Virus record (IMG/VR): IMGVR_UViG_2869965101_000006
Length of the DNA: 36,398 nt
DNA from: a virus
Taxonomy: Duplodnaviria > Heunggongvirae > Uroviricota > Caudoviricetes
Direction: 5' to 3' (one strand)
Part shown: positions 1-21,100 of the stretch, piece after piece
How positions within the stretch are numbered: position 1 is the stretch's first letter
How the letters are laid out: each line of letters begins with the position of its first letter
Program-made: the position numbers and the translations under genes
The notes under the pieces: model-generated
The model's input: the letters and a program-made list of their open reading frames with translations, nothing else
The model's database searches: none
What the model was told of the DNA's origin: nothing

Positions 1-61
1 GGTATCCGTTCTGCTGAAGTGTCATGGCGTTGATTTTACGGTGACTCTTCGACAGTGAAAA

Positions 62-83
62 GAAAAAAGGCCGCAGAGCGGCC
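62..83 (-). terminator. putative rho-independent terminator ending the int-orf120-orf146 unit
   Basis: GC stem ggccgc/gcggcc (69..83) preceded on the plus strand by an A-run (62..68), i.e. a U-tract after the stem on the minus strand; lies downstream of the 209..649 ORF. Confidence 0.45.
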
Positions 84-208
84 ATAAACACAAGTAAAAA
101 TCAACAAGTTAGATAATTATCAAAGACTTACAGACACACAAAAACACAGCCAACCACAACAAATAACAGGGATGTGGTCACTTTGTGGATCATATCGCCG
201 CCATAAAT

Positions 209-649
209 TTACTTAATAACAGTAACCACAGCCACAAGCACGGCCATCGCAGACAGGACAATACCTGTGAGTAACCAAGTCTGATTTGCAAATGATTTCT
301 GAAGTTCAGTACGATGCTCAGCCATCTCAACTTTCAGAGACTGGCGTAAATCAGCCATCTCAGACTTCAGGGATTGGCGCGATTCTGCCATCTCAAGCCT
401 CAACCCTTCGCGAATCTCCAGTACATCAGATTTGGTAGCAAAGGATTCGCTTCTTGTAGTGAGAGTAATCAGGTTGTTTTTGATTTCAGTCACATCACTT
501 TCCAGGCAACTGACCCGCCGTTCAAGGTCGTCATTCATGCCATCACCTCCATCATTACCACTTCCTGTTACTTGGTTGTTGGATACATTATAGGCATTCT
601 CTTTCTTTTTTCTGAACCGCGAAATATGTGCAACATTCTCTGCCATCAC
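209..649 (-). CDS. hypothetical membrane-anchored coiled-coil protein (146 aa)
   Basis: ORF start overlaps the stop of the upstream ORF; polar Gly/Asp-rich N-terminus, three 11-residue repeats (SLKSEMADLRQ-like) and a C-terminal hydrophobic helix (LLTGIVLSAMAVLVAVVTVI). Confidence 0.5.
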   Translation of the reverse strand: MMAENVAHISRFRKKKENAYNVSNNQVTGSGNDGGDGMNDDLERRVSCLESDVTEIKNNLITLTTRSESFATKSDVLEIREGLRLEMAESRQSLKSEMADLRQSLKVEMAEHRTELQKSFANQTWLLTGIVLSAMAVLVAVVTVIK

Positions 650-1008
650 TTCTCATCACCCTGCTTGCCTACCCAGTTCATAAAGGCCCGGGCCGAGTAA
701 CGATGAACAAACCCACATCTGTTACAGGTAAGTCGGAATTCATAGTTATGGATATTTTCCCGATCATGTCCCTCATATCCCGGATACCCAGTAAATGGAC
801 CGATGTAATCAAGCATAACAAAAGTGCCTAAATCACACTCCTCAGCAGTTTTCGGCTCAGGCCCCACCTCAACAATATTCGTCAAATACATGTACATATC
901 CGTATCGCCACACGACAAACATTTTTCATTCGTAGACGACTCATTGAGAAAACGCGCAAAATTATCGAGCGTTGCCATTCTTTTAAGTTCATCTAAATGA
1001 AACTTCAC
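646..1008 (-). CDS. hypothetical protein with two Cys pairs (CLSCG...CNRCG), possible zinc ribbon (120 aa)
   Basis: ORF with GTG start 2 nt after the int stop and stop overlapping the next ORF start; no family recognised. Confidence 0.45.
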   Translation of the reverse strand: MKFHLDELKRMATLDNFARFLNESSTNEKCLSCGDTDMYMYLTNIVEVGPEPKTAEECDLGTFVMLDYIGPFTGYPGYEGHDRENIHNYEFRLTCNRCGFVHRYSARAFMNWVGKQGDEK

Positions 1009-1010
1009 TC

Positions 1011-1988
1011 TTAAGCACCTCCTAGTGGATTAAACCTCACCGCATCCTGCAGGTAATCCGGCGCAAGATGGGCATAAATCATCGTTGTCTGAATCTTTGC
1101 GTGCCCCAGAATTTTCTGGAGCGTCAGAATATTGCCGCCGTTCATCATGAAATGACTGGCGAAGGTGTGGTGCAGCGCATGAACAGCCTGGCCGTCAGGA
1201 ACATCAGGTGCGACCGTTTTGATGACATCGCGAACCAATGAATAATCCAGCGTCGGAAACACCAGTTTCCCGCCCCGTTTTTTGATCTTTTCAAACAGGC
1301 TTTCAGAAATAGGAACGGTACGGTTTTTGCTGTTCTTCGTTTTTGAAAAAGTGATTCGACAATGAAGAACACGGCGCTGCTCCAGTGCCGCTACCTCGCC
1401 CCATCGCGCCCCGGTCGACAGAAGGATTTCGACAGCCAGTCGTTCATCGGGATTTTCAGCCAGTGCATCCAGCAACTGAACACATTCAGACTTACTCAGA
1501 TATCCCATTTCGCGCTCCTTAACCTTCATTCCTTTAAGGCCTTGAACGGGGTTATCGTTAAGAAAATGGCCGGATGAGATGAGTGCGGTAAACATCGCGC
1601 TTAACGCCCCAATCTCTCGATTTATGGTGCTGGGCTGTATCCCCTGCTCTATCCTGGACACACGTAGCTCGGTGAGCATCGTTGTATTAAGTTTATGCAC
1701 GCACGGGTCATCCATTGCTTCACTCAAGCGCAGCAATTTAAGGCGCGTGTTATGCCCTGACTTCATTAGCTGGCCGTGGTATTTCCACCACAAGTCAATA
1801 AGCACTGACAGAGGACGGCGATCAATAGAGTTTCCTTTCCACTCATTGTTATGCTGTTGCGCCAGCACCCACCGCTCATATAAAACTGCATCCGATTTCG
1901 TTTTAAATTTTTTGCGAATGCGTTTGCCTTTACGCCCCTCAGGGCACATGTCAAGAAGATACCCTCCCAGAATTGATTTTATGCTCAT
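1011..1988 (-). CDS. int: P2-type tyrosine integrase
   Basis: Start taken at internal Met (MSIKSILGG...) so as not to overlap the repressor; recalled similarity to P2 Int along the whole length, including the C-terminal HALHHTFAS...GHAKIQTTMIYAHL catalytic region. Confidence 0.9.
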   Translation of the reverse strand: MSIKSILGGYLLDMCPEGRKGKRIRKKFKTKSDAVLYERWVLAQQHNNEWKGNSIDRRPLSVLIDLWWKYHGQLMKSGHNTRLKLLRLSEAMDDPCVHKLNTTMLTELRVSRIEQGIQPSTINREIGALSAMFTALISSGHFLNDNPVQGLKGMKVKEREMGYLSKSECVQLLDALAENPDERLAVEILLSTGARWGEVAALEQRRVLHCRITFSKTKNSKNRTVPISESLFEKIKKRGGKLVFPTLDYSLVRDVIKTVAPDVPDGQAVHALHHTFASHFMMNGGNILTLQKILGHAKIQTTMIYAHLAPDYLQDAVRFNPLGGA

Positions 1989-2037
1989 TCGTGAAACCCC
2001 AGCGTTACAAGACCACCATGCCCCCAGCGTTCTATGA

Positions 2038-2346
2038 TTAGCCGGGCTGTGTACCAGTCTTGCGGGATTTTTGAGAAGACGATGTGTTTTCTGGCCCATC
2101 AGGGGAGAGAGAGGGACTGATCTGCCCAGCAGCCTCATTTGTTTTTCCCGTCATAAGCCAATTCATGTACTTAAAAAAGCGAGGGTGATTAACAATCTTG
2201 ATAAGCACTTCGCCCCCTATGTTTTCAATCCGCCCCGTTTCATAACGACGCAAAGTGCCGATAGGCACATCAATCAGGCCGCAAAATTCTTCGCGCGTTA
2301 AATCCTCTGATTCACGAATCACTCTAATTTTTTCACCGATAAGCAT
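2038..2346 (-). CDS. C: P2 C-type immunity repressor
   Basis: About 100 aa, divergent from cox; HTH-like N-terminus and a C-terminus (SSSQKSRKTG) resembling P2 C; start chosen at internal Met. Confidence 0.7.
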   Translation of the reverse strand: MLIGEKIRVIRESEDLTREEFCGLIDVPIGTLRRYETGRIENIGGEVLIKIVNHPRFFKYMNWLMTGKTNEAAGQISPSLSPDGPENTSSSQKSRKTGTQPG

Positions 2347-2442
2347 TGACAGTGTCCCTATAAGTACACTAAGCTTGCGCACAAGGTGTACTTATAAGCA
2401 CACCAAGTCACAAACAACCACAGATAGCGCAGGTTATCACAC
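2347..2442. promoter_or_regulatory. immunity switch region (divergent early/repressor promoters with operator repeats)
   Basis: Intergenic between divergent C and cox; direct repeats ctataagtacac (2358..2369) and cttataagcacac (2391..2403); TTGACA at 2346..2351. Confidence 0.5.
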
Positions 2443-2721
2443 ATGGCAAAAGTCCTGAACACACACGAACAGGCAGACTTTGAGCGTTTAGCAGCGTTCT
2501 ATCCCTACCGCGATGAGCATGGGTTACCAGTACTTGAAGAAAGCCTGAAAGATTACGCAAAGCGTACCAACCAAGCTGTTAACACAGTGAAAAGACAGGC
2601 TGACAGAGGTTCAATTCCCATCAACCAAGATGAAAAGAACTCAAGACGCACAGTAAATCTCTTCGCTCTTTTCCTGAAAACAATCAGGAGCGCAGAAAAA
2701 TACGTGCAGATGACAAAATAA
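2443..2721 (+). CDS. cox: Cox-like small early protein (92 aa)
   Basis: Position immediately rightward of the C/Pe switch and size match P2 cox; sequence identity not verified. Confidence 0.55.
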   Translation: MAKVLNTHEQADFERLAAFYPYRDEHGLPVLEESLKDYAKRTNQAVNTVKRQADRGSIPINQDEKNSRRTVNLFALFLKTIRSAEKYVQMTK

Positions 2722-2735
2722 CGAGGTGTCATTTT

Positions 2736-3074
2736 ATGCTGAAGCAACGCCGTAATTTTCGTACCGGAACAGAACGCCACGCTAACCGTTTCACTACCAG
2801 TGCATCACGCAGCAACATCCGCTACAGCCTGAGTGATACACACGCAACGCAGGATGGCTACCCAGTAAAACAAATCGGCGAGCACACCTGGCTGATTGAG
2901 AAAGCTGGAATCGTGATCCACAAATGCCCACGCAATCCGTTTACCGGAAACCGCATTTTTGCATTGAGCTGTGGCGACAATCAGTTCGGGCAGGATTTCA
3001 CATTATACGAAGCACTTCGCACGATTGATCGTCTGCTTCGCGGGCAAAGTTTTATTAAACAGACTGATTTATAA
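2736..3074 (+). CDS. hypothetical early-region protein (112 aa)
   Basis: ORF with upstream GAGG-like RBS, in the early operon. Confidence 0.45.
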   Translation: MLKQRRNFRTGTERHANRFTTSASRSNIRYSLSDTHATQDGYPVKQIGEHTWLIEKAGIVIHKCPRNPFTGNRIFALSCGDNQFGQDFTLYEALRTIDRLLRGQSFIKQTDL

Positions 3075-3084
3075 CAGGTGCTTT

Positions 3085-3372
3085 ATGACCAAAGACCATG
3101 CACAAGGTGTATTTATCCGTTTTATTGATTTTCGCGGTGAACTGTTATTACGTGCATCCGCTATTGACGGAGTGACTCCGGCGGGTAAAAACGGAGCCGA
3201 CGAAGCCACTTACGTTTATCTGAACGGCACGCGACTGCTTGTGGAACTTCCGTACCAGACCGTACGAGAAATCATTAGCGAAGCTGAAAAGGCACGCCAG
3301 GTTAATGGCGATGAACCCTATATCGAAATTATTTGTATGGATTCAGAAGCTGAAATACAGAAAGCAGATTAA
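3085..3372 (+). CDS. hypothetical early-region protein (95 aa)
   Basis: ATG at 3085 inside a longer six-frame ORF; co-directional with the early operon. Confidence 0.45.
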   Translation: MTKDHAQGVFIRFIDFRGELLLRASAIDGVTPAGKNGADEATYVYLNGTRLLVELPYQTVREIISEAEKARQVNGDEPYIEIICMDSEAEIQKAD

Positions 3373-3383
3373 AGGGCGTTGTG

Positions 3384-3620
3384 ATGGGCAAAGAATATAA
3401 AACTCTCATTAACAAAGCACTTGAGCGTTTTTATTTTCGCTTAAGTGCATCAGGCGCTCATGCTGAACGTGCGGCCCGTGACTCATTGACCAGAGCAATC
3501 CGAAGTCTGTATGACGTGGCTTTTTACGCTGATGATCTGGATGCACTTAACGAACTTTCCGAGCTGATCTGTGCCGCAGTGGATTTGCCCCTATATTTCC
3601 AGACATCTGTTATCACTTAA
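3384..3620 (+). pseudogene. early-region ORF truncated by IS2; C-terminus now encoded by IS2 end sequence
   Basis: ORF runs into the IS2 terminal sequence at 3580; its last residues ([11 protein letters not shown]) are identical to the IS2-derived tail that also replaces the ogr C-terminus. Confidence 0.5.
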
Positions 3621-3844
3621 CCCATTACAAGCCCGCTGCCGCAGATATTCCCGTGGCGAGCGATAACCCAGCGCACTATGCGGATGCCATTCGTTATAAT
3701 GCTCGAACGCCTCTGCAAGGTTCTTTGCTGCCGTTAACCCGTCTGGTTTGGGCATGATACTGATGTAGTCACGCTTTATCGTTTTCACGAAGCTCTCTGC
3801 TATTCCGTTACTCTCCGGACTCCGCACCGCCGTGTTCTTCGGTT
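3580..3844 (-). mobile_element. IS2 remnant (one terminus plus 3' end of insD), about 265 bp
   Basis: 3580..3844 is identical to 33056..33320 of the full IS2 copy; the element is cut off by IS911 at 3845. Confidence 0.8.
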
Positions 3845-3916
3845 TGAAGTGGCACACTGAATTTGGCCACCTGAACAGAGGTGATATGCTCACCTCAGAA
3901 CAACACAGGTGCTCCA

Positions 3917-4338
<422 letters not shown>

Positions 4339-4609
4339 TTACGCAGTCAGGTACTTGAGCTACATGGCATCAGCCATGGTTCGGCCGGAGCAAGAAGCAT
4401 CGCCACAATGGCAACCCGGAGAGGCTACCAGATGGGACGCTGGCTTGCTGGCAGGCTCATGAAAGAGCTGGGGCTGGTCAGCTGTCAGCAGCCGACTCAC
4501 CGGTATAAACGTGGTGGTCATGAACATGTTGCTATCCCTAACTACCTTGAAAGGCTGAACCGCCCCGGGAATCCTGGAGACTAAACTCCCTGAGAAAGAG
4601 GTAAACAGG

Positions 4610-4932
4610 ATGACTAAAAATACTCGTTTTTCCCCCGAAGTCCGTCAGAGGGCGATTCGTATGGTTCTGGAAAGTCAGGGCGAATATGACTCACAGTGGG
4701 CGGCAATTTGTTCCATTGCCCCAAAGATTGGCTGTACACCGGAGACTCTGCGTGTCTGGGTACGCCAGCATGAGCGGGATACCGGAGGCGGTGATGGCGG
4801 GCTCACCACCGCTGAACGTCAGCGTCTGAAAGAGCTGGAACGTGAAAATCGTGAACTGCGCCGCAGTAACGATATCCTTCGCCAGGCTTCCGCTTATTTT
4901 GCGAAGGCGGAGTTCGACCGCCTCTGGAAAAA

Positions 4933-4936
<4 letters not shown>
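4610..4936 (+). CDS. IS629 OrfA
   Basis: 108-aa [24 protein letters not shown]..., IS3-family OrfA. Confidence 0.9.
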
Positions 4937-6395
<1,459 letters not shown>

Positions 6396-6406
6396 TGACC
6401 ACTTCA

Positions 6407-7012
6407 AACCGCAAAAAAGCGAACGTCATGCGCCCGGTGGAGTACCAGAACGGCGAAGCATTCACTATCCGTAACGTACGGGTTATGCCTGAATCCATTC
6501 CGGCTGGCTTTAAGGCACTGGCTGACATGAGTCCGTTTGAATCCCTGCTGATTGTGGATTTGGGCGGAACCACGCTGGATGTGGCAAAGGTTCAGGGGCA
6601 ACTGGCAGGTATCAGCCAGGTGTTTTGCGATCCACACGTGGGCGTTTCTCTGATGGCCGATGCCGTACTGTCGGTGATGGCCACTAACGGTATGCGCACC
6701 AGTCACCACATCGCCAATACCATTATCGAACATCGCCATGATGAAGCCTGGCTGCGCCAGCACATCCACAATGACGCGCATTACGCCAGCCTGATGGCGG
6801 TAATTCGTGAAAAGGAAGAAACACTGAAACAACGCGTGATCCGCGCGCTGGCGGGTTTTTCGGGTTACGGGCGGGTGATGGTTGTCGGTGGAGGGGCGGA
6901 GATTGTGGCACCCGCTATCCGCGAAGCCTGCGGAGTTAATGCGACTTTCATCGCGGACGGGGTGCCACAGTTTGCTCTGGTTAATGGGCTGTACGCAATG
7001 GACAAGGAGTAA
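6407..7012 (+). pseudogene. parM/stbA-like actin-type segregation ATPase, 5'-truncated by the IS911 boundary
   Basis: Reading frame begins exactly at the IS911 end; translation (…TFTIRNVRVMPESIPAGF…LLIVDLGGTTLDV…) matches the C-terminal ~200 aa of plasmid R1 ParM as recalled. Confidence 0.7.
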
Positions 7013-7016
7013 ACCA

Positions 7017-7328
7017 ATGACGACTCCAACCAGACGGATAAGTTTCTATCTGAAGCCCACCGCCGTCAAGAACGAAGGAGAAGCATGCGCCTGGCTGGAC
7101 AGCCTTACACCAGAAGCCCGCAAAAGCGGCCAACGCGTGGCTTTTCTGGCCGGGCTGGCACTTCTGAAAATGAATCCGGCAGAGGCTTATCGACTGGCTG
7201 CATGGGCTGGTGATGAAGCGTTATCAGTGACACAAACCAGGACAGAACGCCCCACATCACAGCCAGTATCAACCGCACAGATAACCAGTCAGATGGCCGG
7301 AAATATCCGGGCGTTATTTCCTGAATAA
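7017..7328 (+). CDS. parR/stbB-like centromere-binding protein
   Basis: ATG at 7017 just after the parM stop; N-terminus (RISFYLKP…AWLDSLTPEARKSGQRVAFLAGLALL) resembles R1 ParR. Confidence 0.65.
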   Translation: MTTPTRRISFYLKPTAVKNEGEACAWLDSLTPEARKSGQRVAFLAGLALLKMNPAEAYRLAAWAGDEALSVTQTRTERPTSQPVSTAQITSQMAGNIRALFPE

Positions 7329-7391
7329 CACAACATCAGGGCGAGTTCGCCCTGCTCTCCACCTCAGAACATAAACAAGGAGAACGACTTA

Positions 7392-7982
7392 ATGAGCGAA
7401 ATCAACTATCAGGCATTACGTGAACGTTATTCACCTGTGCCAGTACCGAAATGCCCTATTTGCGGCGAGGAAATGTCAATTCAGCGAATATCTGGAGCAC
7501 AGGTTGTTTATGCCTGCTCCGGTTATGGTGATGATGGAGATTTCAAAATTGGCCGAACTCTTGCTGACGAACATTATGAAAAATCACGCGTAACAGTGTT
7601 GGATGTCGGGGATCCTGAAGTATTGGCGCTACTTGATTGGCTGGAAACCAAAGACAACCGAATCGCTGAACTGGAAAAAATCGCCACTGACTATGCACTT
7701 AAATTCCAGAAAGCACAGGACGCATTAAAGCATGCCGCTTTGCTGCATAGCAGGACGGCGCAACAAACAAATAATTTTGCAGTATCGCTTCCGGACATAA
7801 GCGAATATTTCATTAATGACGTATTTCAGCCCTTGCGATACGAGCGGGATGTTGAAAGAGCCATCATAAAGGCTGGCGGAAAAGCATTGTGGCAGGAGAA
7901 ACACGAGGACAGAACGCATCAGTCATGCGATGTAAATTGTGGATGGTTTAGCCCACTGACGACAGATAAAAATAACACCTGA
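7392..7982 (+). CDS. Ea22/Ead-like prophage protein with Cys-pair motif (196 aa)
   Basis: N-terminus MSEINYQALRE… recalls the lambda Ea22 family; CPICGEE and CDVNCGW motifs; AAGGAG RBS. Confidence 0.45.
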   Translation: MSEINYQALRERYSPVPVPKCPICGEEMSIQRISGAQVVYACSGYGDDGDFKIGRTLADEHYEKSRVTVLDVGDPEVLALLDWLETKDNRIAELEKIATDYALKFQKAQDALKHAALLHSRTAQQTNNFAVSLPDISEYFINDVFQPLRYERDVERAIIKAGGKALWQEKHEDRTHQSCDVNCGWFSPLTTDKNNT

Positions 7983-8472
7983 TCCCCCTCAAACTAGGGC
8001 GATAATCGCACATCGCCCTGCTGCACAATAGTGCACAAATTTGCACAATTTTTTTGAACGAATTTTTGCCCTTCCAGCCCGCGTGGCGGCTGGATCCGTC
8101 AAGGATCCGTGCGTGCACAAAAAAACGCGCTTTTTCTGCGCGCAGGTGACGGGGGAACAGCCCGCGTTTCAGGGGGTAAATAGCGTTCCCTTAACGATGT
8201 CGCAGCGACACGACAGAATGGCCGTATTTCTCACGCTGAGCGTGAAAAATACGTGAGGGATTCTGATTTGATGGGGTGAAAGGTAAGGCCGTCAAAATCG
8301 CACTGAGGCGGCGAGAACATGCAGTCAACGCGGTGGGATTGCGTAAGAGTCTGACCGTCGATGGTGGCGATAAACTGGAAGGCGTCGTGAAATTATCTGA
8401 CTGATACAGGAGCTGGAGAGTCGGGGCATAAATTTTTTATGCCCCGGCGAAGCAGCAGACAAGCGAAGCGCG

Positions 8473-9525
8473 TCAGGATGTGGGCTGGATGTCTAACAGT
8501 GCGTAAGGGTTAAAGCGGATCACCTCTTCGCCAAGCCAGTCATTGATGTGCTTCATGGCCTCCATGACGGGCATCAGCTCGTTAATTGCGTAAACCCGCG
8601 CGGCCTTCTCCACATCACCAAACGCACTTTTTTCACCCGGCATCGCCCCCATCAGTTGCGGCGGAACGCGGTGCGCAGCCAGCACATCATCACGGGATGC
8701 CGCCTTAACATTCATGAACTCATCCTTTGCGGTGATCTGCTGGAACGGCAAAATTTGCACCCCCTCTTTGCCCCCGTTGGGCGCATGAATGAGCACGTTT
8801 TTAAACGCACCACCACCACGCGCACCCTGTAGCGTTTCTTTCAGGGAGTCCATGCTTTCGCGGTTTACCTGCGCGGCACCGATGTAGATGATGCACCCGG
8901 CGTGGGATCCGTTGTCGTAATACAGTTTTCTGAACATGTCCGCCGAATGAGACAGGCTGGCCGAGAGTAATGCGCCGAGATATTCCGGCATGCCGTAGAT
9001 TTCCTGGTTAATGTCAGGATTCATCAGGTGACACACTTTGCCTGGGCGAAACTGAAACGCATCCTTGCCATCCTGCACATACCACCATGATTCAAGATCG
9101 CTTCCGCGTCGCATGTATTTCGCCAGGGCGTGCCGTAATTTAAGCGGTTCGCCGAGCATATTGCTTCGAAGCTCAAGGAATGCGTTACCGAACACAAACC
9201 AGTCCAGCGCCAGCGCCAGCGCCGAGAAATCCTACCGGGAAAGCAGCGGGTGCGGGATGTAGCAACCGAGCAATACATTGCGCTTAAAGTAAAGCGCAGA
9301 CTGATGCCAAGACGTTTGCCGGGCAGCTCTTGCCAGACCGTACCAGTCCACCGGGGGTTCATACCACCGCCCGTTATCAGCACAGTACATATTGTCCAGC
9401 AGGTCATGCCCGGTCAGGCGATAAGGACCATCAAATGTGAATGCACTGAGCGATGATTCTTTCCTGAGCGCATCAGCGAGATCAATGCGTGAACTCATGC
9501 GCACTTTTTTATTTTTTCTGCTCAT
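8473..9525 (-). pseudogene. portal protein (P2 Q-like) with in-frame TAG
   Basis: Two six-frame ORFs (9232..9525 and 8473..9195) are in the same frame, separated by a TAG at 9232..9234 on the minus strand. Confidence 0.8.
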
Positions 9526-11275
9526 CAGAACTCCATAACCGTGAAACGCTCGTTTTCTCCTTCGCCGCCAATCGGTTCGTTAATGACAGCAAGCATGGTT
9601 ACCCACGCAAGGTCGCCGTGGCTGATCCCCCTCGCTCGGTCCGTTTCGTAAGTGATAAAGCCGCCCGGTGTTTTCACCTTACGCACGGCGTTAAAGGCCG
9701 CGACCAGCTCGCGTTCGGCGCGATCGTATTCCCACCGCCCGGCACGCATTATTTGCAGCATTTTCAGTACCAGCGACCGTTTTGATGACAGCGTGAAGGT
9801 GTACGGAATAGCGGCAGGGAAAAACCGTTTCACTATCTGATAAACAGCCTCCCCGTTCCCGCCCGTCACATCAATGCCGATGTGTTCCACGTTGTAGCGA
9901 CACGTGAACTCTTCAATGACTCTGGCCTGTTCTTCAAACTCCAGCCCCTGAACGCGTCGCGTCTCCACCGTTCGAAAACGGCCACCAGGAACAGACGGAG
10001 GAACCACCACGGACACAGCGCCGCTGTCGCCGTTGCCACTGCTGCCGTTTGCGTCATACCCAATCCATACCGGACGATTCCCCATCGGGCGGGGAGCAAA
10101 AGGTTTCCAGTCTTTCCAGTCGTCGTATCCGTCAACGCCGCAGCCAATCAGGATATTCAGGTTAAATGCCGATTCCCCTTCGCGGACAAACTCGCACATA
10201 TAGAGATTGAGGAACTCGTCTTCGGTGTTTTCATCACGAATTTCGTCGATATCGGTGTGTTTCCAGCCGTGATTAACCACATCTTCCAGCGTGACAATTT
10301 GCCGCCACGTCCGGTCAGGGCAGATAAGCCCGTTATGCAGCGTTTTCCAGTCCACAGAAAAACGCTGGCGTTTATGCGAGGCCTTTTTCTCGTTCCAGCG
10401 GTCGCCGTTCCAGTAGGCGTATGCCTCGTGCGTTTCGGTGGATGGCGTGGAGAAGTAGGTGCGCCGCAGTCCGCTGAGGGTTGCCATAGCGCCAGCCACC
10501 TTGCGCAGTTCAGCAAAGCGACTGACCCAGAAAAATTCATCAAAATAAAAATTGCCCGTATAGGACTGTGCCGACGCAGCAGAAGTGCCGAGAAAATGCA
10601 GCTCTGCGCCGTTGGAGAGGATGATTTTATCGCCCCCTTTCAGCTCCACATCAACTTCAGCCGCGCCTTCTGAATAATGCTTTTAAACTGGAACGCCTGA
10701 CGACGCGACGCAGACAAAAAAATCTGGTTACGCTGGTAAGGTTGCGCCACATCGTCACGCAGCGCCATCAGCAGTGCTTCCTGTGCAAAATACCAGGTCG
10801 CCCCAATCTGTCGGGATTTCAGGATCATCCTGTTACGTATCCCGGCTTCCCTGCAAAGGGTCAGGGAGTCAAACCAGCCCCGCTGATGCCACTCCAGCCT
10901 GCTGATGATTTTTTCCCGCAGTGCGGCAATCTGTTCCGGCGTGAAATGATTTTTGAGTTTTTTCGCCCGGCCTTTCTTTCCTGCGGCCATCACATCCGGC
11001 TGGCCATCATGCAGCTTTTTAAGCTGCCGGGTCAGCAGGTCTATTTCCTTAAAGTCACCGCCTGTTTTATTCTGTTTTTCAGTAAGCTGGATGAGGCGCG
11101 CATCGATGGACTGCGTGACACGCTGCCCGGGTGGCGTTTCATCCCACTGGTCACGTTTTTTCCACGCATAAATCGTGTTCGGGTTTATTCCCATCAGACG
11201 TGATATTTCTGCGGGCGGATAACCCTGCCAGTAAAGTTGCCGCGCACGCTGGCGCACAAAAGCGTCCTGAATCAT
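9525..11275 (-). pseudogene. terminase large subunit (P2 P-like), frameshifted
   Basis: N-terminal ORF (10640..11275) and C-terminal ORF (9525..10649) are in different frames. Confidence 0.8.
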
Positions 11276-11429
11276 TGCTCCCCCTGAGTAATTACAGGAA
11301 GATTACCCGCGCGCGAAACTGTTCTCCTTAACCCTCTGTTCTGGCCGTTTTCTTACAACAAAAGCCCTTTGTATCAGCCTGTTACGCTTTGCCATCATGA
11401 CTGAAGAACCAGTCAGAGGGGCAAAAACT

Positions 11430-11885
11430 ATGGCTAATGAAAAAAAGACATCCCGCAAAAAGTTTCGCGTGGCTGTCTCCGGATCAACTGTTGATGGCCG
11501 TGAAATCAGTCCGGTGCATCTGCGTGAAGCCGCCGAGAACTTCAACCCGGATGTTTACGCTGCCCGCGTGAACGTTGAGCACTATCTCTCGCCATGCCCG
11601 TCAAGCGAATTTTCCGCAATGGGCGATGTCACCGCACTGAGTACGGAAGACATTACGGAAGGTCCGCTGGCCGGACGTACTGCGCTGTATGCAGAAATCG
11701 AACCGACCGAGCGCATGAAGCAGCTTGTTGCGGACGGCAAGAAAATCTATTCCAGTATCGAACTGCACCCGCAGTTCTCCGTTAACGGGCGCGCCTATCT
11801 GGTCGGGCTGGCGATGACCGACACCCCGGCAAGCCTGGGCACTGAGCGCCTGAAATTCACGGCACAGCAACGTCAGGCGGTGATG
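11430..11885 (+). pseudogene. capsid scaffold (P2 O-like) N-terminal fragment
   Basis: KKFRVAVSGSTVDGREISPVHLREAAENFNPDVY… resembles the P2 gpO N-terminus; similarity ends near LGTERLKF and the frame runs on into the endolysin. Confidence 0.7.
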
Positions 11886-11921
11886 ACGTTTAACAGTATC
11901 CAGGGTGAAGGAGAAGGACGA

Positions 11922-12718: not shown

Positions 12719-12869
12719 CACTCCCACATGGGGAAATCTCGGTATATGGGGCGACCGCCTTCTGGATGCACTGGAAACCTGTAACGCGGATAAACGGGCC
12801 ATTGAATTACTGGAACAGCGCAGGCTGCAACGACTGAACAACGAGGATAACAACCATGCTGAAAACTGA
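12579..12869 (+). CDS. LysC/Rz1-like outer-membrane lipoprotein spanin
   Basis: Starts in the +1 frame inside lysB; lipobox LLTGC; proline-rich. Confidence 0.6.
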   Translation: MNAPTLCLTLVLLTGCAGTQNAPLPAPSVRLIPQTLTIPVTPPPFPDTPTWGNLGIWGDRLLDALETCNADKRAIELLEQRRLQRLNNEDNNHAEN

Positions 12870-13323
12870 TTCCCTGCGTGAAGCCATGACCCGTTCATGC
12901 CGATGGTGTCAGGCTAACCCGGAAAAATTCACCATTTTCGTGGAGAGCGGCAACATTGAAACGACCGGAGAAACCCCATCGTTTGTTTACCGCTATCAGA
13001 TGGTGATGTTTGTCATGGATTACGCCGGGGAGCTGGACGACCTCACGCTGCCGCTGCTGGCGTGGTTATCCGAAAATCAGCCACAGTTGTTGCTCAACCC
13101 TGAGCGTAATCAGGACATCAAATTCTCCGCCGTTATCAATGACGATGACAGCGCCGATCTCCTGTTTACGCTCCCCCTGCGGGAACGCGTTCGCATCACG
13201 CGCAGCAGTCAGGGCACACCGCAGGCAGAACACCTGCTGGAGCCAAAACCCCGCCTGCCATCTTCCGAAGGCGACTGGTCGCATGTATTCCAGGATGTGA
13301 CGTGGGGTGAAAGCGATGGATAA
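12856..13323 (+). CDS. tail completion protein (P2 R-like)
   Basis: 155-aa ORF at the conserved position after the lysis genes. Confidence 0.65.
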   Translation: MLKTDSLREAMTRSCRWCQANPEKFTIFVESGNIETTGETPSFVYRYQMVMFVMDYAGELDDLTLPLLAWLSENQPQLLLNPERNQDIKFSAVINDDDSADLLFTLPLRERVRITRSSQGTPQAEHLLEPKPRLPSSEGDWSHVFQDVTWGESDG

Positions 13324-13951
13324 GGCATTCACTCGCGTGGATGAAACCTTTGAAGCCATCCGCGACAGCCTGAATCAGCAGGCCATCAATAACATCGCCA
13401 GAAAGCTGGCACAGGATTTACGCCGCGCCCAGCAGGCACGTATCCGGTCACAGAAAGCGCCGGACGGGACCGCATGGACACCACGCAGACGCCACGTAAC
13501 CCGGATACAGGAGCGCATTCGCTTTATCTGGAATAACGAAGCACGCACGCTGAAAAACTGGCATCACGACACGGGGAAATACGGGCGAACCATCACCGGG
13601 TGGGATGAGGATAAAAACAGCATCCGCACGTTTTACCGGGATGACATCGACCGCTTTCTGGAAATACGCACCCGGCGCATCAACCAGGACAGCACAAAGC
13701 GCGTCCCCATGTTCGTAAAACTGCGCACCGCCCGCTACCTGAAAGCCCGTGCAGATGCTTCCGGTGTGACGGTGGGTTACAGCGGCGTGGCCGCACGTAT
13801 TGCACGCGTTCATCAGTTCGGTGAGCGCGATCAGGTTGCGCCGGGCATTTTCACCGATTACCCGGTACGTGAGCTGCTGGGTATCAGCCAGGCAGATGAG
13901 CGCCCGATTTATAACACGGTGCTGGGCCGGATTGCAGAGGCTGTACGGTGA
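13316..13951 (+). CDS. virion morphogenesis/tail completion protein (P2 S-like)
   Basis: Overlaps R stop and V start; position in the conserved R-S-V-W-J-I order. Confidence 0.55.
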   Translation: MDKAFTRVDETFEAIRDSLNQQAINNIARKLAQDLRRAQQARIRSQKAPDGTAWTPRRRHVTRIQERIRFIWNNEARTLKNWHHDTGKYGRTITGWDEDKNSIRTFYRDDIDRFLEIRTRRINQDSTKRVPMFVKLRTARYLKARADASGVTVGYSGVAARIARVHQFGERDQVAPGIFTDYPVRELLGISQADERPIYNTVLGRIAEAVR

Positions 13952-14529
13952 GCGCAGAACTCATGCGGCTACTGAGCAATATCATCCGCACCGGGATCAT
14001 CTCTGAAGTTGATGAGAAGTCCTGGCGCGTGCGCGTTCGCAGCGGCGAACTGGAAACAGGTTGGCTGCGCTGGAACACCACTCGCGCGGGAGCCTTCAAT
14101 GTGTGGCTGCCGCCATCACCAGGCGAACAGGTGGTAATTGCCTGCATTGGCGGCAACCCGGAAACCGCCATGATAATTGGCAGCCTGTGGAGTGATGCCA
14201 TTCCGGCCCCCGGCAAAAGCCTGAAAGAAATCGTGGTCAGCGCGCCGGATGGCGCGGTGTTCCGCTACGACGCGGACGCAGGCGCACTGAGCGCCAGCGG
14301 CATGAAAACAGCCACCCTGCAGGCATCCGTCAGCGTGACACTGGATACGCCCGTCGTGGAATGCACAGACCTTCTGAGAACGGCGACGCTTGACGTCACA
14401 AAAGGGGGAAAGATGAGCGGCAATATCACGCACAGCGGCGGCAATTTCACCTCAAACGGCATCACAGTGCATACGCATAAACACGGTGGCGTTAAAGGTG
14501 GCAGCGATTCGACAGGAGGCCCGCAGTGA
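13948..14529 (+). CDS. baseplate spike/assembly protein (P2 V-like)
   Basis: 193-aa ORF, translationally coupled, in the conserved order. Confidence 0.75.
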   Translation: MSAELMRLLSNIIRTGIISEVDEKSWRVRVRSGELETGWLRWNTTRAGAFNVWLPPSPGEQVVIACIGGNPETAMIIGSLWSDAIPAPGKSLKEIVVSAPDGAVFRYDADAGALSASGMKTATLQASVSVTLDTPVVECTDLLRTATLDVTKGGKMSGNITHSGGNFTSNGITVHTHKHGGVKGGSDSTGGPQ

Positions 14530-14876
14530 CAACCCGCTACACAGGAATGAACCCGGACGGAACGGGAAACCTGAACGATATGGAGCACCTGAAACAGTCA
14601 GTCAGGGACATCCTGACCACCCCGCTGGCAAGCCGGGTTATGCGACGGGAATATGGCAGCCTTGTGCCTGATTTGATTGACGAACCCATGAATAACACCA
14701 CGCGTCTGCAATGCATGAGTGCTGCCGTGATTGCGCTGACACGATGGGAACCCCGCATTGCCCTGGACGCTATCGACGTTGTCTGGAAGGCAGGAGGCCG
14801 CGCCGGGGTGACGCTGTCGGGCACTGTCATGCAGACCATGCAGAATGTTGAATTAACCATCACGCTGAGGGAGTAA
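14526..14876 (+). CDS. baseplate protein (P2 W-like)
   Basis: 116-aa ORF coupled to V, in the conserved order. Confidence 0.75.
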   Translation: MTTRYTGMNPDGTGNLNDMEHLKQSVRDILTTPLASRVMRREYGSLVPDLIDEPMNNTTRLQCMSAAVIALTRWEPRIALDAIDVVWKAGGRAGVTLSGTVMQTMQNVELTITLRE

Positions 14877-14879
14877 ATC

Positions 14880-15776
14880 ATGCCTGCCGTTGACCTTTCA
14901 CAGTTACCGGAACCCGCCATCATCGCGGAGCCTGACTTTGAGGCAATTCTGGCTGACACAAAGGCCATGATGATTGCGTCCTATCCCGCCGAACAGCGTG
15001 AAGCCGTTTCCGCCGCGCTGGAGCTGGAATCGGAACCCCTTAACGTTATCGCTCAAACCATGTCGTTTCGTGAAATGCTGTTACGCCAGCGGGTCAATGA
15101 GGGTGCACGCGCCTGCATGCTAAGCCACAGCGCCGGGACAGACCTGGACAACCTCGCGGGCAATATGAACACAAAGCGCCTGGTTATCACTCCGGCAACG
15201 GATACCACCGATGCAGTGATGGAAAGTGACACCTCGCTGAGACTACGGGCGCAACGGGCATATGACGGTCTGAGTGTTGCTGGCCCGTCAGGTGCATACG
15301 AGTATTTTGCACGCAGCGCCAGCGGTCTGGTACGCGATGCGCGGGCCATCAGCCCGTCTCCGGCCAACGTGACGGTTTCCATCCTGTCCACTGAGGGCGA
15401 CGGCACAGCAACGGAGGCGTTGCTTAATACCGTTCGCGCCGTTCTGAATGCAGAGGATACCCGCCCGGTGGCCGACCGCCTGACCGTACAGAGTGCCAGA
15501 ATCGTGACATGGCGGCTGAATGCAAAACTGTACTTTTACCCCGGCCCGGAATCCGAACCTATTCTGGCCGCGGCTGAATCGTCGTTCAGGAAGTGGCTGG
15601 CTGAGCAGGGGCTTATCGGTCAGGACGTGGCGTTGTCCGCCATTGCTGCCGCACTGCATGTGCACGGTGTGCAACGCGTGGAGATAATCGAACCCACACA
15701 GAATATGGCCATCAGCGACATACAGGCGGCGCGCTGTGAGTCATTCACCATCAGCGAAGGTGGACGCAATGAGTAA
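14880..15776 (+). CDS. baseplate protein (P2 J-like)
   Basis: 298-aa ORF in the conserved order. Confidence 0.8.
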   Translation: MPAVDLSQLPEPAIIAEPDFEAILADTKAMMIASYPAEQREAVSAALELESEPLNVIAQTMSFREMLLRQRVNEGARACMLSHSAGTDLDNLAGNMNTKRLVITPATDTTDAVMESDTSLRLRAQRAYDGLSVAGPSGAYEYFARSASGLVRDARAISPSPANVTVSILSTEGDGTATEALLNTVRAVLNAEDTRPVADRLTVQSARIVTWRLNAKLYFYPGPESEPILAAAESSFRKWLAEQGLIGQDVALSAIAAALHVHGVQRVEIIEPTQNMAISDIQAARCESFTISEGGRNE

Positions 15777-16299
15777 TTCGTTGTTACCACCATCAGCCAG
15801 CAATTTCATGCGTTGTGCCGAAGCCGTCGGAACACGCATTACAGACATTCCGGTAGACCTCAACACGCTGTGGTCGCCGGACACCTGCCCGGTGCATCTG
15901 CTGCCTTATCTCGCCTGGGCGTTTTCCGTTGACCGCTGGGATCGCAACTGGCCGGAAGAGACAAAGCGACAGGTTATTCGTGATGCATGGCTGATACACC
16001 GACACAAAGGGACCATCAGCGCACTGCGCCGGGCCATTGAGCCGCTGGGATACCTCATTCGCGTGTCTGAGTGGTGGGAGTTCGGCGGAGAACCGGGAAC
16101 ATTTACCGTTGAAGTCGGCACGCTGGACAGTGGCGTGACGGAGGAAATGTATCTGGAAATGGAGCGGTTGATTGCTGATGCCCGCCCGGTCAGCCGCCAC
16201 ATGACAGGGCTGAATATCATTCAGGAAATTCCGGGGGATATTTTCGCAGCGGCGGCAACTTATGACGGTGAAGTTATTACCATTTATCCAGGCGATTAA
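15769..16299 (+). CDS. baseplate/tail protein (P2 I-like)
   Basis: ATG at 15769 overlapping the J stop. Confidence 0.75.
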   Translation: MSNSLLPPSASNFMRCAEAVGTRITDIPVDLNTLWSPDTCPVHLLPYLAWAFSVDRWDRNWPEETKRQVIRDAWLIHRHKGTISALRRAIEPLGYLIRVSEWWEFGGEPGTFTVEVGTLDSGVTEEMYLEMERLIADARPVSRHMTGLNIIQEIPGDIFAAAATYDGEVITIYPGD

Positions 16300-16832
16300 G
16301 CATGAGTACCACAACACGAAAATTTAAAACCATTATCACCAATACGGGTGCAAAAAAATTAGCTCAGGTAGCCGCGCCAGATGGTAAGCCTGTCCGCCTG
16401 ACTCATATGGCCGTGGGCGACGGTGGCGGCACGTTGCCCACACCAGACAGTAAGCAGACCCGTCTGGTGCATGAGGTGTGGCGACATACTGTTAATCGCG
16501 TCATCCTGGACGCAACACATCAGAACCGCATTATTGCGGAGCTGGTTATTCCTCCTGAAACGGGCGGATTCTGGATCCGGGAAATTGGTGTATTTGATGA
16601 GCACGGCGATTTAATCGCGGTGGGAAATACTGCCGAAAGTTACAAGCCAGCCGTTGCCGAAGGGTCCGGTCGTGCACAAACATTTCGCACCATTCTGACC
16701 GTATCCAGCACTGCCACCGTGGCGCTTACCGTGGACAACACCATGGTGATGGCCACAGTGGATTACGTGGATGACAAACTGAAAGAGCATGAACAGTCAC
16801 GACGTCACCCGGACGCCTCGCTGACCGCAAAA

Positions 16833-17228
16833 GGCTTTGTTCAACTCAGTAGCGCCACTAACAGCGTGTCTGAAACGCAGGCTGCAACGCCGAAAGCAGT
16901 AAAGGCCGCGTATGATCTTGCTAACGGTAAATATACTGCGCAGGATGCCAGCACGACGCGAAAAGGCCTTGTCCAGCTCAGTAGCGCCACCAACAGCACG
17001 TCTGAAACGCAGGCTGCAACGCCGAAAGCAGTAAAGGCCGCGTATGACCTTGCTAACGCAAAATATACCGCTCAGGACGCCACGACGGCACAAAAAGGGA
17101 TAGTCCAGCTCAGTAGTGCCACCAACAGCACGTCTGAAACACTGGCCGCGACATCGAAAGCGGTTAAGGCGGTAATGGATGAAACGAACAAGAAAGCGCC
17201 CTTAAACAGTCCTGCGCTGACCGGAACG
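16833..17228 (+). repeat. about three tandem 132-bp coding repeats in the tail fibre gene
   Basis: Near-identical DNA units starting near 16833, 16965 and 17097, encoding …VQLSSATNS.SET.AATPKAVKAAYDLAN.KYTAQDA…. Confidence 0.8.
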
Positions 17229-17565
17229 CCAACAACGCCAACTGCGCGACAGGGAACGAATAATACCCAAATCGCAAGCACGGCTTTCGTTATGGCTGCG
17301 ATTGCCGCCCTTGTAGATTCGTCACCTGACGCACTGAATACGCTGAACGAGTTAGCGGCGGCGCTGGGAAACGACCCGAATTTTGCGACCACCATGACTA
17401 ACGCGCTTGCGGGTAAGCAACCGAAAGATGCCACCCTGACGGCGCTGGCCGGGCTTGCTACTGCGGCAGACAGGTTTCCGTATTTTACGGGGAATGATGT
17501 CGCCAGCCTGGCAACCCTGACAAAAGTCGGGCGGGATATTCTTGCGAAATCGACCGTTGCTGCCG

Positions 17566-17591
17566 TTATCGAATACCTCGGTTTACGAGAA
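17566..17591. other. gix/hix-type inversion crossover site, left copy inside the fibre gene
   Basis: TTATCGAATACCTCGGTTTACGAGAA matches the reverse complement of 21021..21046 at 21 of 26 positions, with an identical ACCTCGGTTTAC core. Confidence 0.6.
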
Positions 17592-18009
17592 CTCGGCACA
17601 AGCGGGGAGAAAATACCGTTACTCAGTACAGCGAATACCTGGACCAATCGACAAACATTCAGCGGTGGCCTTTCTGGGGAACTGTCCGGCAATGCCGCTA
17701 CTGCAACAAAGCTGAAAACAGCACGAAAAATTGCTGGAGTTGGTTTTGATGGTTCTAGCGATATTTCAATTAGTGCCAAAAATGTCAATGCATTTGCACT
17801 CCGACAAACAGGTAATACTGTTAATGGTGATACATCCATTGGATGGAATTGGGATAGTAGTGCATATAACGCCCTGATTGGTGGTGCATCTGCATTAATT
17901 CTTCACTTTAATATAAATGCTGGTAGCTGTCCTGCCGTACAATTCCGTGTGAATTATAAAAATGGTGGCATTTCCTACAGGTCGGCTCGTGATGGTTATG
18001 GGGTTGAAT

Positions 18010-18777
18010 GGTGATGCTGCCAACTTACTGATTTAGTGTATGATGGTGTTTTTGAGGTGCTCCAGTGGCTTCTGTTTCTATCAGCTGTCCCTCCTGTTCA
18101 GCTACTGACGGGGTGGTGCGTAACGGCAAAAGCACTGCCGGACATCAGCGCTATCTCTGCTCTCACTGCCGTAAAACATGGCAACTGCAGTTCACTTACA
18201 CCGCTTCTCAACCCGGTACGCACCAGAAAATTATTGATATGGCCATGAATGGCGTTGGATGCCGGGCAACTGCACGCATTATGGGCGTTAGCCTCAACAC
18301 GATTTTACGTCACTTAAAAAACTCAGGCCGCAGTCGGTAACCTCGCGCATACAGCCGGGCAGTGACGTCATCGTCTGCGCGGAAATGGACGAACAGTGGG
18401 GATACGTCGGGGCTAAATCGCGCCAGCGCTGGCTGTTTTACGCGTATGACAGGCTCCGGAAGACGGTTGTTGCGCACGTATTCGGTGAACGCACTATGGC
18501 GACGCTGGGGCGTCTTATGAGCTTGCTGTCACCCTTTGACGTGGTGATATGGATGACGGATGGCTGGCCACTGTATGAATCCCGCCTGAAGGGAAAGCTG
18601 CACGTAATCAGCAAGCGATATACGCAGCGAATTGAGCGGCATAACCTGAATCTGAGGCAGCACCTGGCACGGCTGGGACGGAAGTCGCTGTCGTTCTCAA
18701 AATCGGTGGAGCTGCATGACAAAGTCATCGGGCATTATCTGAACATAAAACACTATCAATAAGTTGGAGTCATTACC
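18010..18777 (+). mobile_element. IS1, 768 bp, with 9-bp target duplication GGGTTGAAT
   Basis: Ends GGTGATGCTGCCAACTTACTGAT… and …ATCAATAAGTTGGAGTCATTACC; insA 18065..18340 and insB frame 18385..18762; duplication at 18001..18009 and 18778..18786. Confidence 0.9.
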
Positions 18778-19066
18778 GGGTTGAATTAGGTTGGTCAGAT
18801 TTCTATACCACGACACGAAAACCTTCAGCGGGAGATGTTGGTGCATATACGCGGGCAGAATGTAACTCAAGGTTTATTACAGGTATTCGCCTTGGCGGTC
18901 TGTCATCTGTTCAGACATGGAATGGTCCCGGCTGGTCTGACAGGTCAGGTTATGTCGTTACGGGTTCAGTTAACGGAAACCGTGATGAATTAATTGATAC
19001 AACACAGGCAAGGCCAATTCAGTATTGCATTAATGGGACGTGGTATAACGCGGGGAGTATTTAACG

Positions 19067-19600
19067 ATGATGCACTTAAAAAACATTACTGCTGGCAACC
19101 CTAAAACAAAAGAGCAATACCAGCTAACAAAGCAATTTAACATCAAATGGCTTTATTCAGATGATGGAAAAAACTGGTATGAGGAGCAAAAGAATTTCCA
19201 GCCAGACACTTTGAAAATGGTCTATGACCATAACGGCGTTATTATTTGTATTGAAAAGGATGTTTCAGCAATTAATCCGGAAGGCGCAAGCGTCGTTGAA
19301 TTACCTGATATTACAGCAAATCGCCGGGCTGATATTTCGGGGAAATGGTTGTTCAAAGATGGCGTAGTGATAAAGCGAACTTATACCGAGGAAGAGCAGA
19401 GGCAACAAGCGGAAAATGAAAAGCAAAGCCTGTTGCAACTTGTCAGGGATAAAACCCAGCTATGGGACTCACAGCTACGGCTGGGCATCATTTCCGACGA
19501 GAATAAACAAAAATTAACCGAGTGGATGCTCTATGCGCAGAAAGTCGAATCTACAGACACCTCCAGCCTGCCAGTAACGTTTCCCGAACAACCAGAATGA
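19067..19600 (+). CDS. tail fibre assembly protein (P2 G-like)
   Basis: 177-aa ORF directly after the fibre gene; paralogue of the inverted copy at 19629..20156. Confidence 0.75.
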   Translation: MMHLKNITAGNPKTKEQYQLTKQFNIKWLYSDDGKNWYEEQKNFQPDTLKMVYDHNGVIICIEKDVSAINPEGASVVELPDITANRRADISGKWLFKDGVVIKRTYTEEEQRQQAENEKQSLLQLVRDKTQLWDSQLRLGIISDENKQKLTEWMLYAQKVESTDTSSLPVTFPEQPE

Positions 19601-19628
19601 GAGAAGGCCCGATATTGGGCCTTAATTT

Positions 19629-20156: not shown

Positions 20157-20159
20157 AAT

Positions 20160-21020: not shown

Positions 21021-21046
21021 TTCCTGTAAACCGAGGTTTTAAATAA
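21021..21046. other. gix/hix-type inversion crossover site, right copy
   Basis: TTCCTGTAAACCGAGGTTTTAAATAA, closely resembling the Mu gix sequence as recalled; inverted partner at 17566..17591. Confidence 0.6.
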
Positions 21047-21100
21047 TGGCCGTTTCTGGCCTGCATGGCATGATTTGCGCTTTTGGACGGGAGATTCAGT

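Follow-up and report, generated by a model that had tools for sequence, protein, structure and literature searches.

What is an actin-type partition cassette of the kind known from plasmids doing in an integrated P2-type prophage, and why is its ATPase gene broken when its adaptor gene is whole? The question was raised by a stretch of viral DNA of 36,398 nucleotides (IMG/VR record IMGVR_UViG_2869965101_000006; the whole stretch is called 'the window' hereafter). An earlier note, made from the sequence alone, had described there the end of an IS911 element followed by the C-terminal part of a ParM-like gene, a ParR-like gene and an Ea22-like open reading frame; it regarded such a cassette as unexpected in a prophage of this type and proposed either mosaicism with a plasmid or phage-plasmid or accessory cargo at the variable site between genes A and Q.

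Identity and gene order of the prophage

Nucleotide matches to phage records identified the window as a P88-like prophage (genus Xuanwuvirus, family Peduoviridae, the P2 family). The best phage match was Xuanwuvirus P884B11, with 99.9% identity across 98% of the query; phage P88 was 96.8% identical over the parMR part, further matches included Citrobacter phage phiSM, and the matching phage records were Xuanwuvirus or P88-like. The cassette was also found in the isolated phages P88, P884B11, Chuche and phiSM. Nucleotide identity of the locus to P88-type phages and prophages ranged from 94 to 99.9%, with the neighbouring genes shared.

An intact prophage of E. coli M19 (locus L001) has the order integrase, C, Cox, small early genes, gene A (replication endonuclease), parM (319 aa), parR (103 aa), ead/Ea22-like gene (196 aa), portal, terminase and capsid genes. 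The intact parMR-ea22 arrangement, which the earlier note had suggested looking for in other genomes, is therefore present in the M19 prophage; phage P88 has the same A-parM-parR order and different genes 3′ of parR. The features of the window that bear on the question are as follows.

3580..3845, minus strand: terminal fragment of an insertion sequence, cut by IS911; left edge of a 5.2-kb deletion, synteny with the M19 prophage ending at window position 3579 (L001 3766)
3591-3917, minus strand: C-terminal transposase ORF associated with this IS fragment
3846..6406, plus strand: IS911, with a second IS inserted in it; the right end of IS911 borders directly on parM codon 119
4556..5865, plus strand: IS3-family element of 1310 bp within IS911 orfB, with 26-nt terminal inverted repeats at 4555-4580 and 5841-5866
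6407..7012, plus strand: 3′ remnant of parM, codons 119-319 and stop, lacking the N-terminal 118 residues, the native start codon and the native upstream region
7017..7328, plus strand: parR, stbB-type centromere-binding adaptor of 103 aa by Pfam, PHROG and ParR profile, intact ORF
7392..7982, plus strand: Ead/Ea22-family gene (PF13935), 196 aa, intact; one among alternative cargo genes between parR and the portal gene
8473..9525, minus strand: portal gene (homologue of P2 Q) with an in-frame stop; right boundary of the A-Q interval

The order parM′-parR-ea22-portal is collinear with L001 9001-14499, gene A being missing from the window through deletion, and both the flanking early genes (window 2757-3579) and the late genes match the M19-type prophage. 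Decay is not limited to parM. The portal gene is split into ORFs 8473-9195 and 9232-9525, with tblastn aligning all 348 residues in one frame; the terminase gene is frameshifted; and a second gap relative to the M19 prophage (L001 14500-17874) has removed the scaffold, capsid, small terminase and head-completion genes, so that capsid genes are absent. A search for the P2 cos sequence gave no match. A Shigella boydii contig is 99.4-99.97% identical to the window, the IS911/parM junction included. We characterized the window prophage as a multiply defective, Shigella-type cryptic prophage.

The IS911 junction and the parM remnant

The observation that the reading frame opens directly after the IS911 end proved exact. 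The left end of IS911 (TGAAGTGG...) begins at 3846, and its right inverted repeat is found exactly at 6383-6406 (0 mismatches, 0 matches by chance); matching IS copies, annotated in RefSeq as 'IS3-like element IS911 family transposase', stop at 6406, and homology to intact prophages begins exactly at 6407. The junction reads TTGTTGACCACTTCA on its left side and AACCGCAAAAAAGCG on its right. Inside IS911, the inner IS3-family element, presumably IS629/IS1203-like, is flanked by a 3-bp duplication GGC (4553-4555 and 5866-5868) and contains an ALIL frameshift pseudoknot (4891-5007, 116 bits), which was the only Rfam match in the scan. The IS fragment to the left of IS911 we take to be IS2-like.

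IS911 itself is flanked by different triplets (GTT on the left, AAC on the right), thus without a target-site duplication, which argues that the junction 6406/6407 arose from a deletion or from recombination between insertion sequences rather than from a simple insertion. Alignment to the M19 prophage gave two blocks, window 2757-3579 corresponding to L001 2944-3766 and window 6407-11910 to L001 9001-14499. The 5,234 bp between them (L001 3767-9000) are missing, and 2.8 kb of insertion sequences stand in their place. With this segment went several early genes, gene A as a whole, all that lay upstream of parM and the first 118 parM codons.

The junction had 0 exact matches in the GTDB species-representative genomes and was present in no E. 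coli genome, complete E. coli genomes covering at most 83% of a query spanning both IS flanks; the one further record with an identical junction is the S. boydii contig. Window positions 6407-8100 are 99.9% identical to intact prophages. This identity of the surviving DNA fits a recent truncation, although it gives no date and is compatible with selection too.

What remains of ParM is, as had been proposed, its C-terminal ~200 aa. All 201 residues of the fragment are identical to the corresponding stretch, 119-319, of the full-length ParM of E. coli M19 (WP_000686499; 319 aa). In Pfam the C-terminal ParM domain (PF21523) was matched over its full length (1-159/159; E = 4.6e-69), and of the StbA_N domain only the last 39 positions (119-157/158) were matched (E = 8e-15); PHROG 691, 'partition protein', was matched from profile position 126 on (5e-52). 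The 206-aa ORF reported by the ORF finder (6392-7012) opens at a TTG at 6392, which lies within the IS911 inverted repeat.

The full-length phage ParM can be aligned from end to end with that of R1 (PDB 1MWK/1MWM; E = 1.2e-92, ~52% identity), and homology to R1 ParM holds for the window sequence as well. By this alignment the nucleotide-binding motifs DLGGTTLD and GGGAE are kept in the remnant, and the N-terminal motif IDDGSTNIK (residues 5-13 of intact ParM) falls within the deleted segment. A complete two-domain actin-fold ATPase is encoded by the intact relatives (M19 prophage, P88) and not by the window. Judged from its sequence, the fragment has lost the phosphate-1 motif along with one third of the fold and is almost certainly inactive as an ATPase.

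ParR and the region upstream of parM

The parR gene begins 5 bp past the parM stop and is intact, as the earlier note had it. Its product matches Plasmid_stab_B (PF10784; 3.2e-23) and, over its full length, PHROG 2515 (2e-57). It is identical at 102 of 103 positions to M19 ParR (WP_000211289), the sole change, A80T, lying in a hypervariable linker, and is ~28% identical to R1 ParR. The single sequence found nothing useful in the PDB, and a profile was needed to reach a structure: built from phage and plasmid ParR sequences, it matched pB171 ParR/StbB (2JD3) at 1.9e-9. Directly 3′ of parM there is thus a small adaptor, predicted by homology to have a ribbon-helix-helix fold. Taken together, the Pfam, PHROG and PDB profile matches uphold the ParM and ParR similarity on which the earlier note's proposal depended.

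In intact loci (M19 prophage) two 38-bp direct repeats, 73 bp apart, are located immediately upstream of parM. Each holds an 18-bp palindrome, CGGGATTnnnnAATCCCG, and the first repeat lies inside the 3′ end of gene A. The palindromes were present in 81 of 81 related loci examined. In a complete P88-like genome of 34.5 kb the palindrome occurs exactly twice, both times right upstream of parM, and none of 100 shuffles contained two or more. By analogy with R1, pB171, srpMRC of SXT/R391 and alpAC of CGP3 we infer that the two palindromes are a candidate ParR operator/centromere; just as well, they could serve as minus-strand terminator hairpins or belong to the gene A origin region. The R1 parC, by contrast, has visible short iterons flanking a TTGACA box.

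Both the palindromes and the N-terminal strand of ParR are conserved across the 81 loci, and as both are conserved they give no covariation signal. A ParM-based locus search of the GTDB species-representative genomes returned only three loci, all at least 98% identical, with no divergent ParM-linked relatives among them.

The window has 0 matches to the palindrome, and repeated ParR sites upstream of parM, as in parC, are absent from it, the upstream region being deleted. A simple consensus scan found no sigma-70-like promoter in 6250-8500; given the simplicity of the scan, parR and ea22 could still be expressed, be it from weak promoters or by read-through out of IS911.

The Ea22-like gene

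The assignment of the third gene to the Ea22 family stood: its product matches Ead_Ea22 (PF13935) over residues 2-140 (2.1e-32; 113 bits against a cutoff of 27), is identical at 196 of 196 positions to WP_001289966 of M19, and has 515 homologues, all with PF13935. The Cys pairs pointed out in the earlier note fared less uniformly. Alignment of the homologues showed a modular family with three interchangeable modules. The N-terminal module is Cys-rich here, and C21, C24 and C42 are conserved only among homologues that share this module; the central helix (RIAELEKIATDYALKFQKAQDALK) is conserved; the C-terminal module is variable, and its C179/C183 pair gives way to S or R in close homologues.

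Downstream of parR, a tblastn match to the Ea22-like protein was found in ~24 of 80 related viral loci; the rest carry different cargo. The true variable site therefore lies between parR and the portal gene.

An AlphaFold2 model of the protein (28-sequence alignment) was of low confidence (pLDDT 61.5, pTM 0.34), which confines fold inference to the layout of secondary structure: a small beta unit, one long helix (75-123) and, at the C-terminus, a small part of alpha/beta type. Foldseek found no PDB match to the model at E ≤0.001, and a sequence search of the PDB at E up to 10 gave two chance-level matches only. That search did not detect a lambda-type C-terminal domain, the fold of which has been solved by NMR, in a protein whose C-terminal module is variable.

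Lambda Ea22 is reported to favour lysogeny and to consist of an N-terminal domain, a coiled coil and a C-terminal domain (PMC7093339, PMC10834534). The Pfam Ead/Ea22 region, i.e. the N-terminal part and the coiled coil, is common to both proteins, and the predicted helix 75-123 of the window protein fits the published layout of domains and coiled coil. The window variant differs in its N-terminal module, which is Cys-rich and resembles a zinc ribbon, and in its C-terminal module, which is unrelated; also, lambda Ea22 is a protein of the exo-xis region, whereas the window homologue sits in the A-Q interval of a P2-type phage.

Origin and state of the locus

We conclude, with a probability of roughly 90%, that the locus is the IS-truncated right-hand remnant of a P88-type ParMRC module (type II, actin-type) together with Ea22 cargo, and that it is a non-functional relic. 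In the intact module, by analogy with R1 and pB171, ParR dimers would occupy a centromere/operator 5′ of parM; ParM filaments in the ATP-bound state, with ParR-DNA complexes as caps, would then push sister excised circular genomes apart, and the parMR operon would probably be autoregulated at the same site. From the 52% identity to R1 ParM and from position we infer such segregation by the P88-type module and binding of ParR to the palindromes. An IS-associated deletion, bounded by the IS fragment and IS911, took the 5.2 kb with the phosphate-binding motif and the palindromes. Left behind were a ParM fragment that is almost certainly inactive, an orphan ParR for which the window holds no detectable cognate site, and an Ea22-like gene with no recognisable promoter. 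With the phosphate-1 motif and the candidate centromere gone and no sigma-70-like promoter in sight, the cassette should be non-functional as a partition system. In the simplest reading ParR and Ea22 are intact because the deletion ended upstream of both; an intact ParR next to a truncated ParM, correctly recorded in the earlier note, needs no special explanation beyond this end point.

Could the surviving genes have been kept because they are useful? The orphan ParR, with or without the Ea22-like protein, would in this case still be expressed; ParR might, for example, repress or titrate the parMR operator of an incoming P88-like phage, and Ea22 might bias infecting phages to lysogeny, as the pro-lysogeny effect reported for lambda Ea22 (PMC7093339, PMC10834534) would suggest. 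It speaks for such domestication that parR and ea22 are intact and 99-100% identical to their counterparts in functional phages, in a neighbourhood where portal, terminase and capsid genes have been disrupted or lost. The intactness of the two genes is compatible with selection, and also with a recent truncation: at 99.9% identity to intact prophages over 6407-8100 there has been too little time for neutral decay, so that intactness says little. Against domestication stand the promoter scan of 6250-8500, which found no promoter-like site, the lack of a ParR target palindrome in the window and the presence of the junction in just one other record, the S. boydii contig, and in no E. coli genome. 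We consider domestication unlikely.

A more specific version, which we hold to be very unlikely, is that the remnant is not inert and that ParR, possibly with Ea22, is expressed by IS911 read-through and acts in trans on incoming P88-like phages. If true, ParR would bind the palindromes upstream of the incoming parM, at the 3′ end of gene A, and so disturb partition, expression or replication; a superinfection interference based on a centromere-binding protein would have been retained by a Shigella lineage.

Prevalence of the cassette and comparison with plasmids

The locus reads differently from an IS-truncated P88-type module if the cassette was captured recently from a conjugative plasmid or a phage-plasmid, making the prophage a phage/plasmid hybrid. 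This mosaic origin, suggested in the earlier note, draws on the fact that the ParM and ParR families were first defined on the plasmids R1/NR1 and pB171. Prevalence data speak against it. The segment from the 3′ end of gene A through parR was found in 1308 of 5426 complete E. coli genomes (24%), with coverage of at least 80% in 1278 of the 1308. It occupied 1454 chromosomal places and 2 plasmid places, and among the matches listed gene A was annotated beside it. The cassette follows the normal P88 gene order, and the view that it is unexpected in an integrated P2-type prophage has to be given up.

For comparison with plasmids, ParM was used in a tblastn search of 72,556 plasmid records, of which the best 5000 were evaluated. 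Six of these encode a ParM at least 95% identical; the 4994 others are <60% identical, the best listed being 52%, and no identities fall between 60% and 95%. Two of the six records were inspected: one is P88-like DNA (L004), the other a 1.4-Mb 'plasmid' record taken to be misassigned DNA. Among the best 5000 listed in the plasmid searches we saw no parMR of at least 80% nucleotide identity on a plasmid or phage-plasmid outside a P88-like genome.

One complete P88-like genome (L004) has been deposited as a 34.5-kb circular 'plasmid'.

This deposition could be read in favour of a phage/plasmid hybrid. With the nearest true plasmid ParMs at most 52% identical among the best 5000 records, a recent plasmid mosaic is not supported; the cassette is also present in isolated phages and is an already published backbone feature of the lineage. 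We regard a mosaic origin as highly improbable.

The other suggestion of the earlier note, accessory cargo at the A-Q variable site, agrees with the literature. In their study of the interval between gpA and gpQ in P2-like prophages, Rousset et al. 2022 (PMC9122126) described it as a defence hotspot and found a partition system, in their words a 'putative plasmid partitioning system', in this hotspot of about a quarter of P2-like phages; their table lists the trio ParM, Ea22 and ParR under the same accessions as the M19 prophage proteins. Literature searches for experimental work on the partition genes of P88/Xuanwuvirus gave annotations only. The parMR cassette of P88-type prophages of the P2 family is an ordinary, already published backbone feature.

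That the genes after gene A form an anti-phage defence system, like P2 old/tin or other systems of the A-Q hotspot, is suggested by the position in a published P2-like defence hotspot (PMC9122126) and by the highly variable cargo 3′ of parR, but has a negligible chance of being right, as ParM and ParR clearly belong to partition families and none of the papers found reports a defence activity for the Ea22 family. We dropped this reading after a PADLOC scan of the ParM fragment, ParR and the Ea22-like protein remained without a match (0 PADLOC-DB families for all three at E up to 1). NCBIfam gave matches below threshold only.

Comparison with known partition systems

The window cassette and the P88/Xuanwuvirus parMR module are the same thing, except that the window copy has lost gene A and has its parM broken off at codon 119 by IS911. 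The module shares with R1/NR1 (stbA/stbB) and pB171 par2 the order parM then parR and a regulatory region upstream, and the nucleotide-binding motifs of R1 ParM are conserved in the intact phage ParM. It differs from the R1 and pB171 systems in residing in an integrating phage of the P2 family and not on a plasmid; where R1 has arrays of short direct iterons around the promoter, the phage has two 18-bp palindromes in 38-bp repeats. The window copy lacks, in addition, the N-terminal third of ParM and the whole upstream region of a ParMRC system.

Two systems are known from elements that share an integrated life style or a prophage setting. The type II partition system srpMRC of the SXT/R391 ICEs stabilises the transient excised circle, its adaptor binding to repeats that precede the gene of the ATPase (Carraro et al. 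2015, PMC4489591). As a partition system on a normally integrated element it is the best functional precedent for a phage ParMRC, although an ICE is not a phage and SrpM/SrpR are only distantly related to R1 ParM/ParR. In the Corynebacterium prophage CGP3, the actin-like filament protein AlpC and the adaptor AlpA, which binds the upstream region of their operon, are induced on excision and needed for efficient replication of circular phage DNA (Donovan et al. 2015, PMC4446434). Here the likeness is one of role and not of family: AlpC belongs to a distant actin-like family, the host is Gram-positive and the gene order is alpA, alpC.

Significance

The window adds one more IS-mediated lesion in a cryptic Shigella-type prophage, which by itself matters little. 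The comparison does set right the notion that there is anything exotic about ParMR in a P2-type prophage. What is mildly interesting lies with the intact phages: their ParM hardly varies, the linker of their ParR is hypervariable, and their candidate centromere of two palindromes extends into gene A. The P88-type lineage was integrated in nearly all finished assemblies examined, yet its ParM is 98-100% conserved beside the replication gene. Why an integrated lineage keeps ParM is a question already raised in print, and one that a broken copy cannot address. In the intact relatives ParMRC might segregate the excised circles, as has been shown for the SXT/R391 ICEs and suggested by AlpAC of CGP3.

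Lesions in the prophage

The portal gene contains an in-frame stop, which splits it into two open reading frames (8473-9195 and 9232-9525 in the window), and within the region 8473-11275 the gene for the terminase large subunit carries a frameshift near residue 202-217. At window position ∼11901-11910, a 3.4-kb deletion corresponds to the loss of positions 14500-17874 of the intact E. coli M19 prophage (L001), a stretch with the genes for scaffold, major capsid, small terminase and head-completion proteins; the deletion junction shows an overlap of ∼10 bp. We conclude that the prophage in the window is unable to form particles.

Left of the parM remnant, the window positions 3580-6406 are occupied by insertion sequences nested in three layers:

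3580-3845, minus strand, end fragment of an insertion sequence (which we take to be IS2-like), interrupted by IS911
3846-6406, IS911, cutting the end fragment and holding an inner IS3-family element
4556-5865, IS3-family element of 1310 bp inside IS911, with a GGC target duplication
4891-5007, ALIL pseudoknot within the 1310-bp IS3-family element

IS911 (3846-6406) itself lacks a target duplication.

In GenBank, Xuanwuvirus P884B11 is a linear record whose last position is equivalent to window position 8066, and beyond ∼8066/8067 the match picks up at the start of the record. This arrangement of the record suggests that the end of the packaged genome (cos) may be situated at ∼8066/8067. A P2 cos sequence used as query gave no match in the whole window.

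Repeats and variation at the partition locus

In the M19 prophage two 38-bp repeats, 73 bp apart, are located upstream of parM:

8504-8541 and 8577-8614 (L001), 38-bp repeats, each with the 18-bp palindrome CGGGATTnnnnAATCCCG

One of them is situated within the 3′-end of gene A and the other in the spacer between A and parM; both are absent from the window. The repeats are candidates for a ParR operator or centromere. Each repeat can also be read, on the minus strand, as a hairpin with a run rich in T behind it, and therefore a role as terminator is an alternative.

We compared ParR among 80 viral contigs (L005-L084; parR at ∼4965-5276 in each locus) in which ParM is at least 99% identical. 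The identity of ParR in these loci falls from 100% to ∼50%; the differences cluster in the linker, residues ∼66-92. Conservation is retained in the strand RRISFYLKP at the N-terminus and in the motif NIxAxFPE at the C-terminus. There seems to be a mosaic boundary inside parR.

P88-like DNA in plasmid and foreign records

Only 2 of the 1456 parMR places in the E. coli collection are held by plasmid records. A circular plasmid deposit from a cat E. coli isolate (NZ_CP148288.1) is a complete 34.5-kb P88-like genome that extends from integrase to ogr and also has a Hok/Gef gene and a Com/methyltransferase pair. The record is explained either by an excised replicative form that was caught in the assembly or by a rare lysogen in the plasmid state. 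The Shigella boydii 600657 contig (L003) has the appearance of prophage DNA from a chromosome, but its 26.8-kb linear record is labelled 'plasmid unnamed'. A 226-kb contig assigned to the Firmicutes ('Vagococcus sp. WN89Y', NZ_JBQPOM010000071.1) carries an E. coli-type P88-like parM locus (98% protein identity), most likely enterobacterial DNA contaminating the Vagococcus assembly.

Mosaic left arm and putative invertible tail-fibre segment

The integrase/immunity end of the window (1-2756) is unlike the M19 and P88 prophages, with a match of just 188 nt at 78% identity, although from position 2757 onward, in the early genes, the identity is 97.6%. This makes the left arm a mosaic, with integrase and repressor of a different type.

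Window positions 17562-21050 have the opposite orientation to positions 12730-16218 of the S. boydii contig, the remainder being 99.4-99.97% identical. This region contains opposed tail-fibre assembly genes and an IS1 copy, with a 'recombinase family protein' gene in the neighbourhood. Its features resemble those of an invertible host-range segment of the Gin/Cin type, captured in both orientations by the two sequences.
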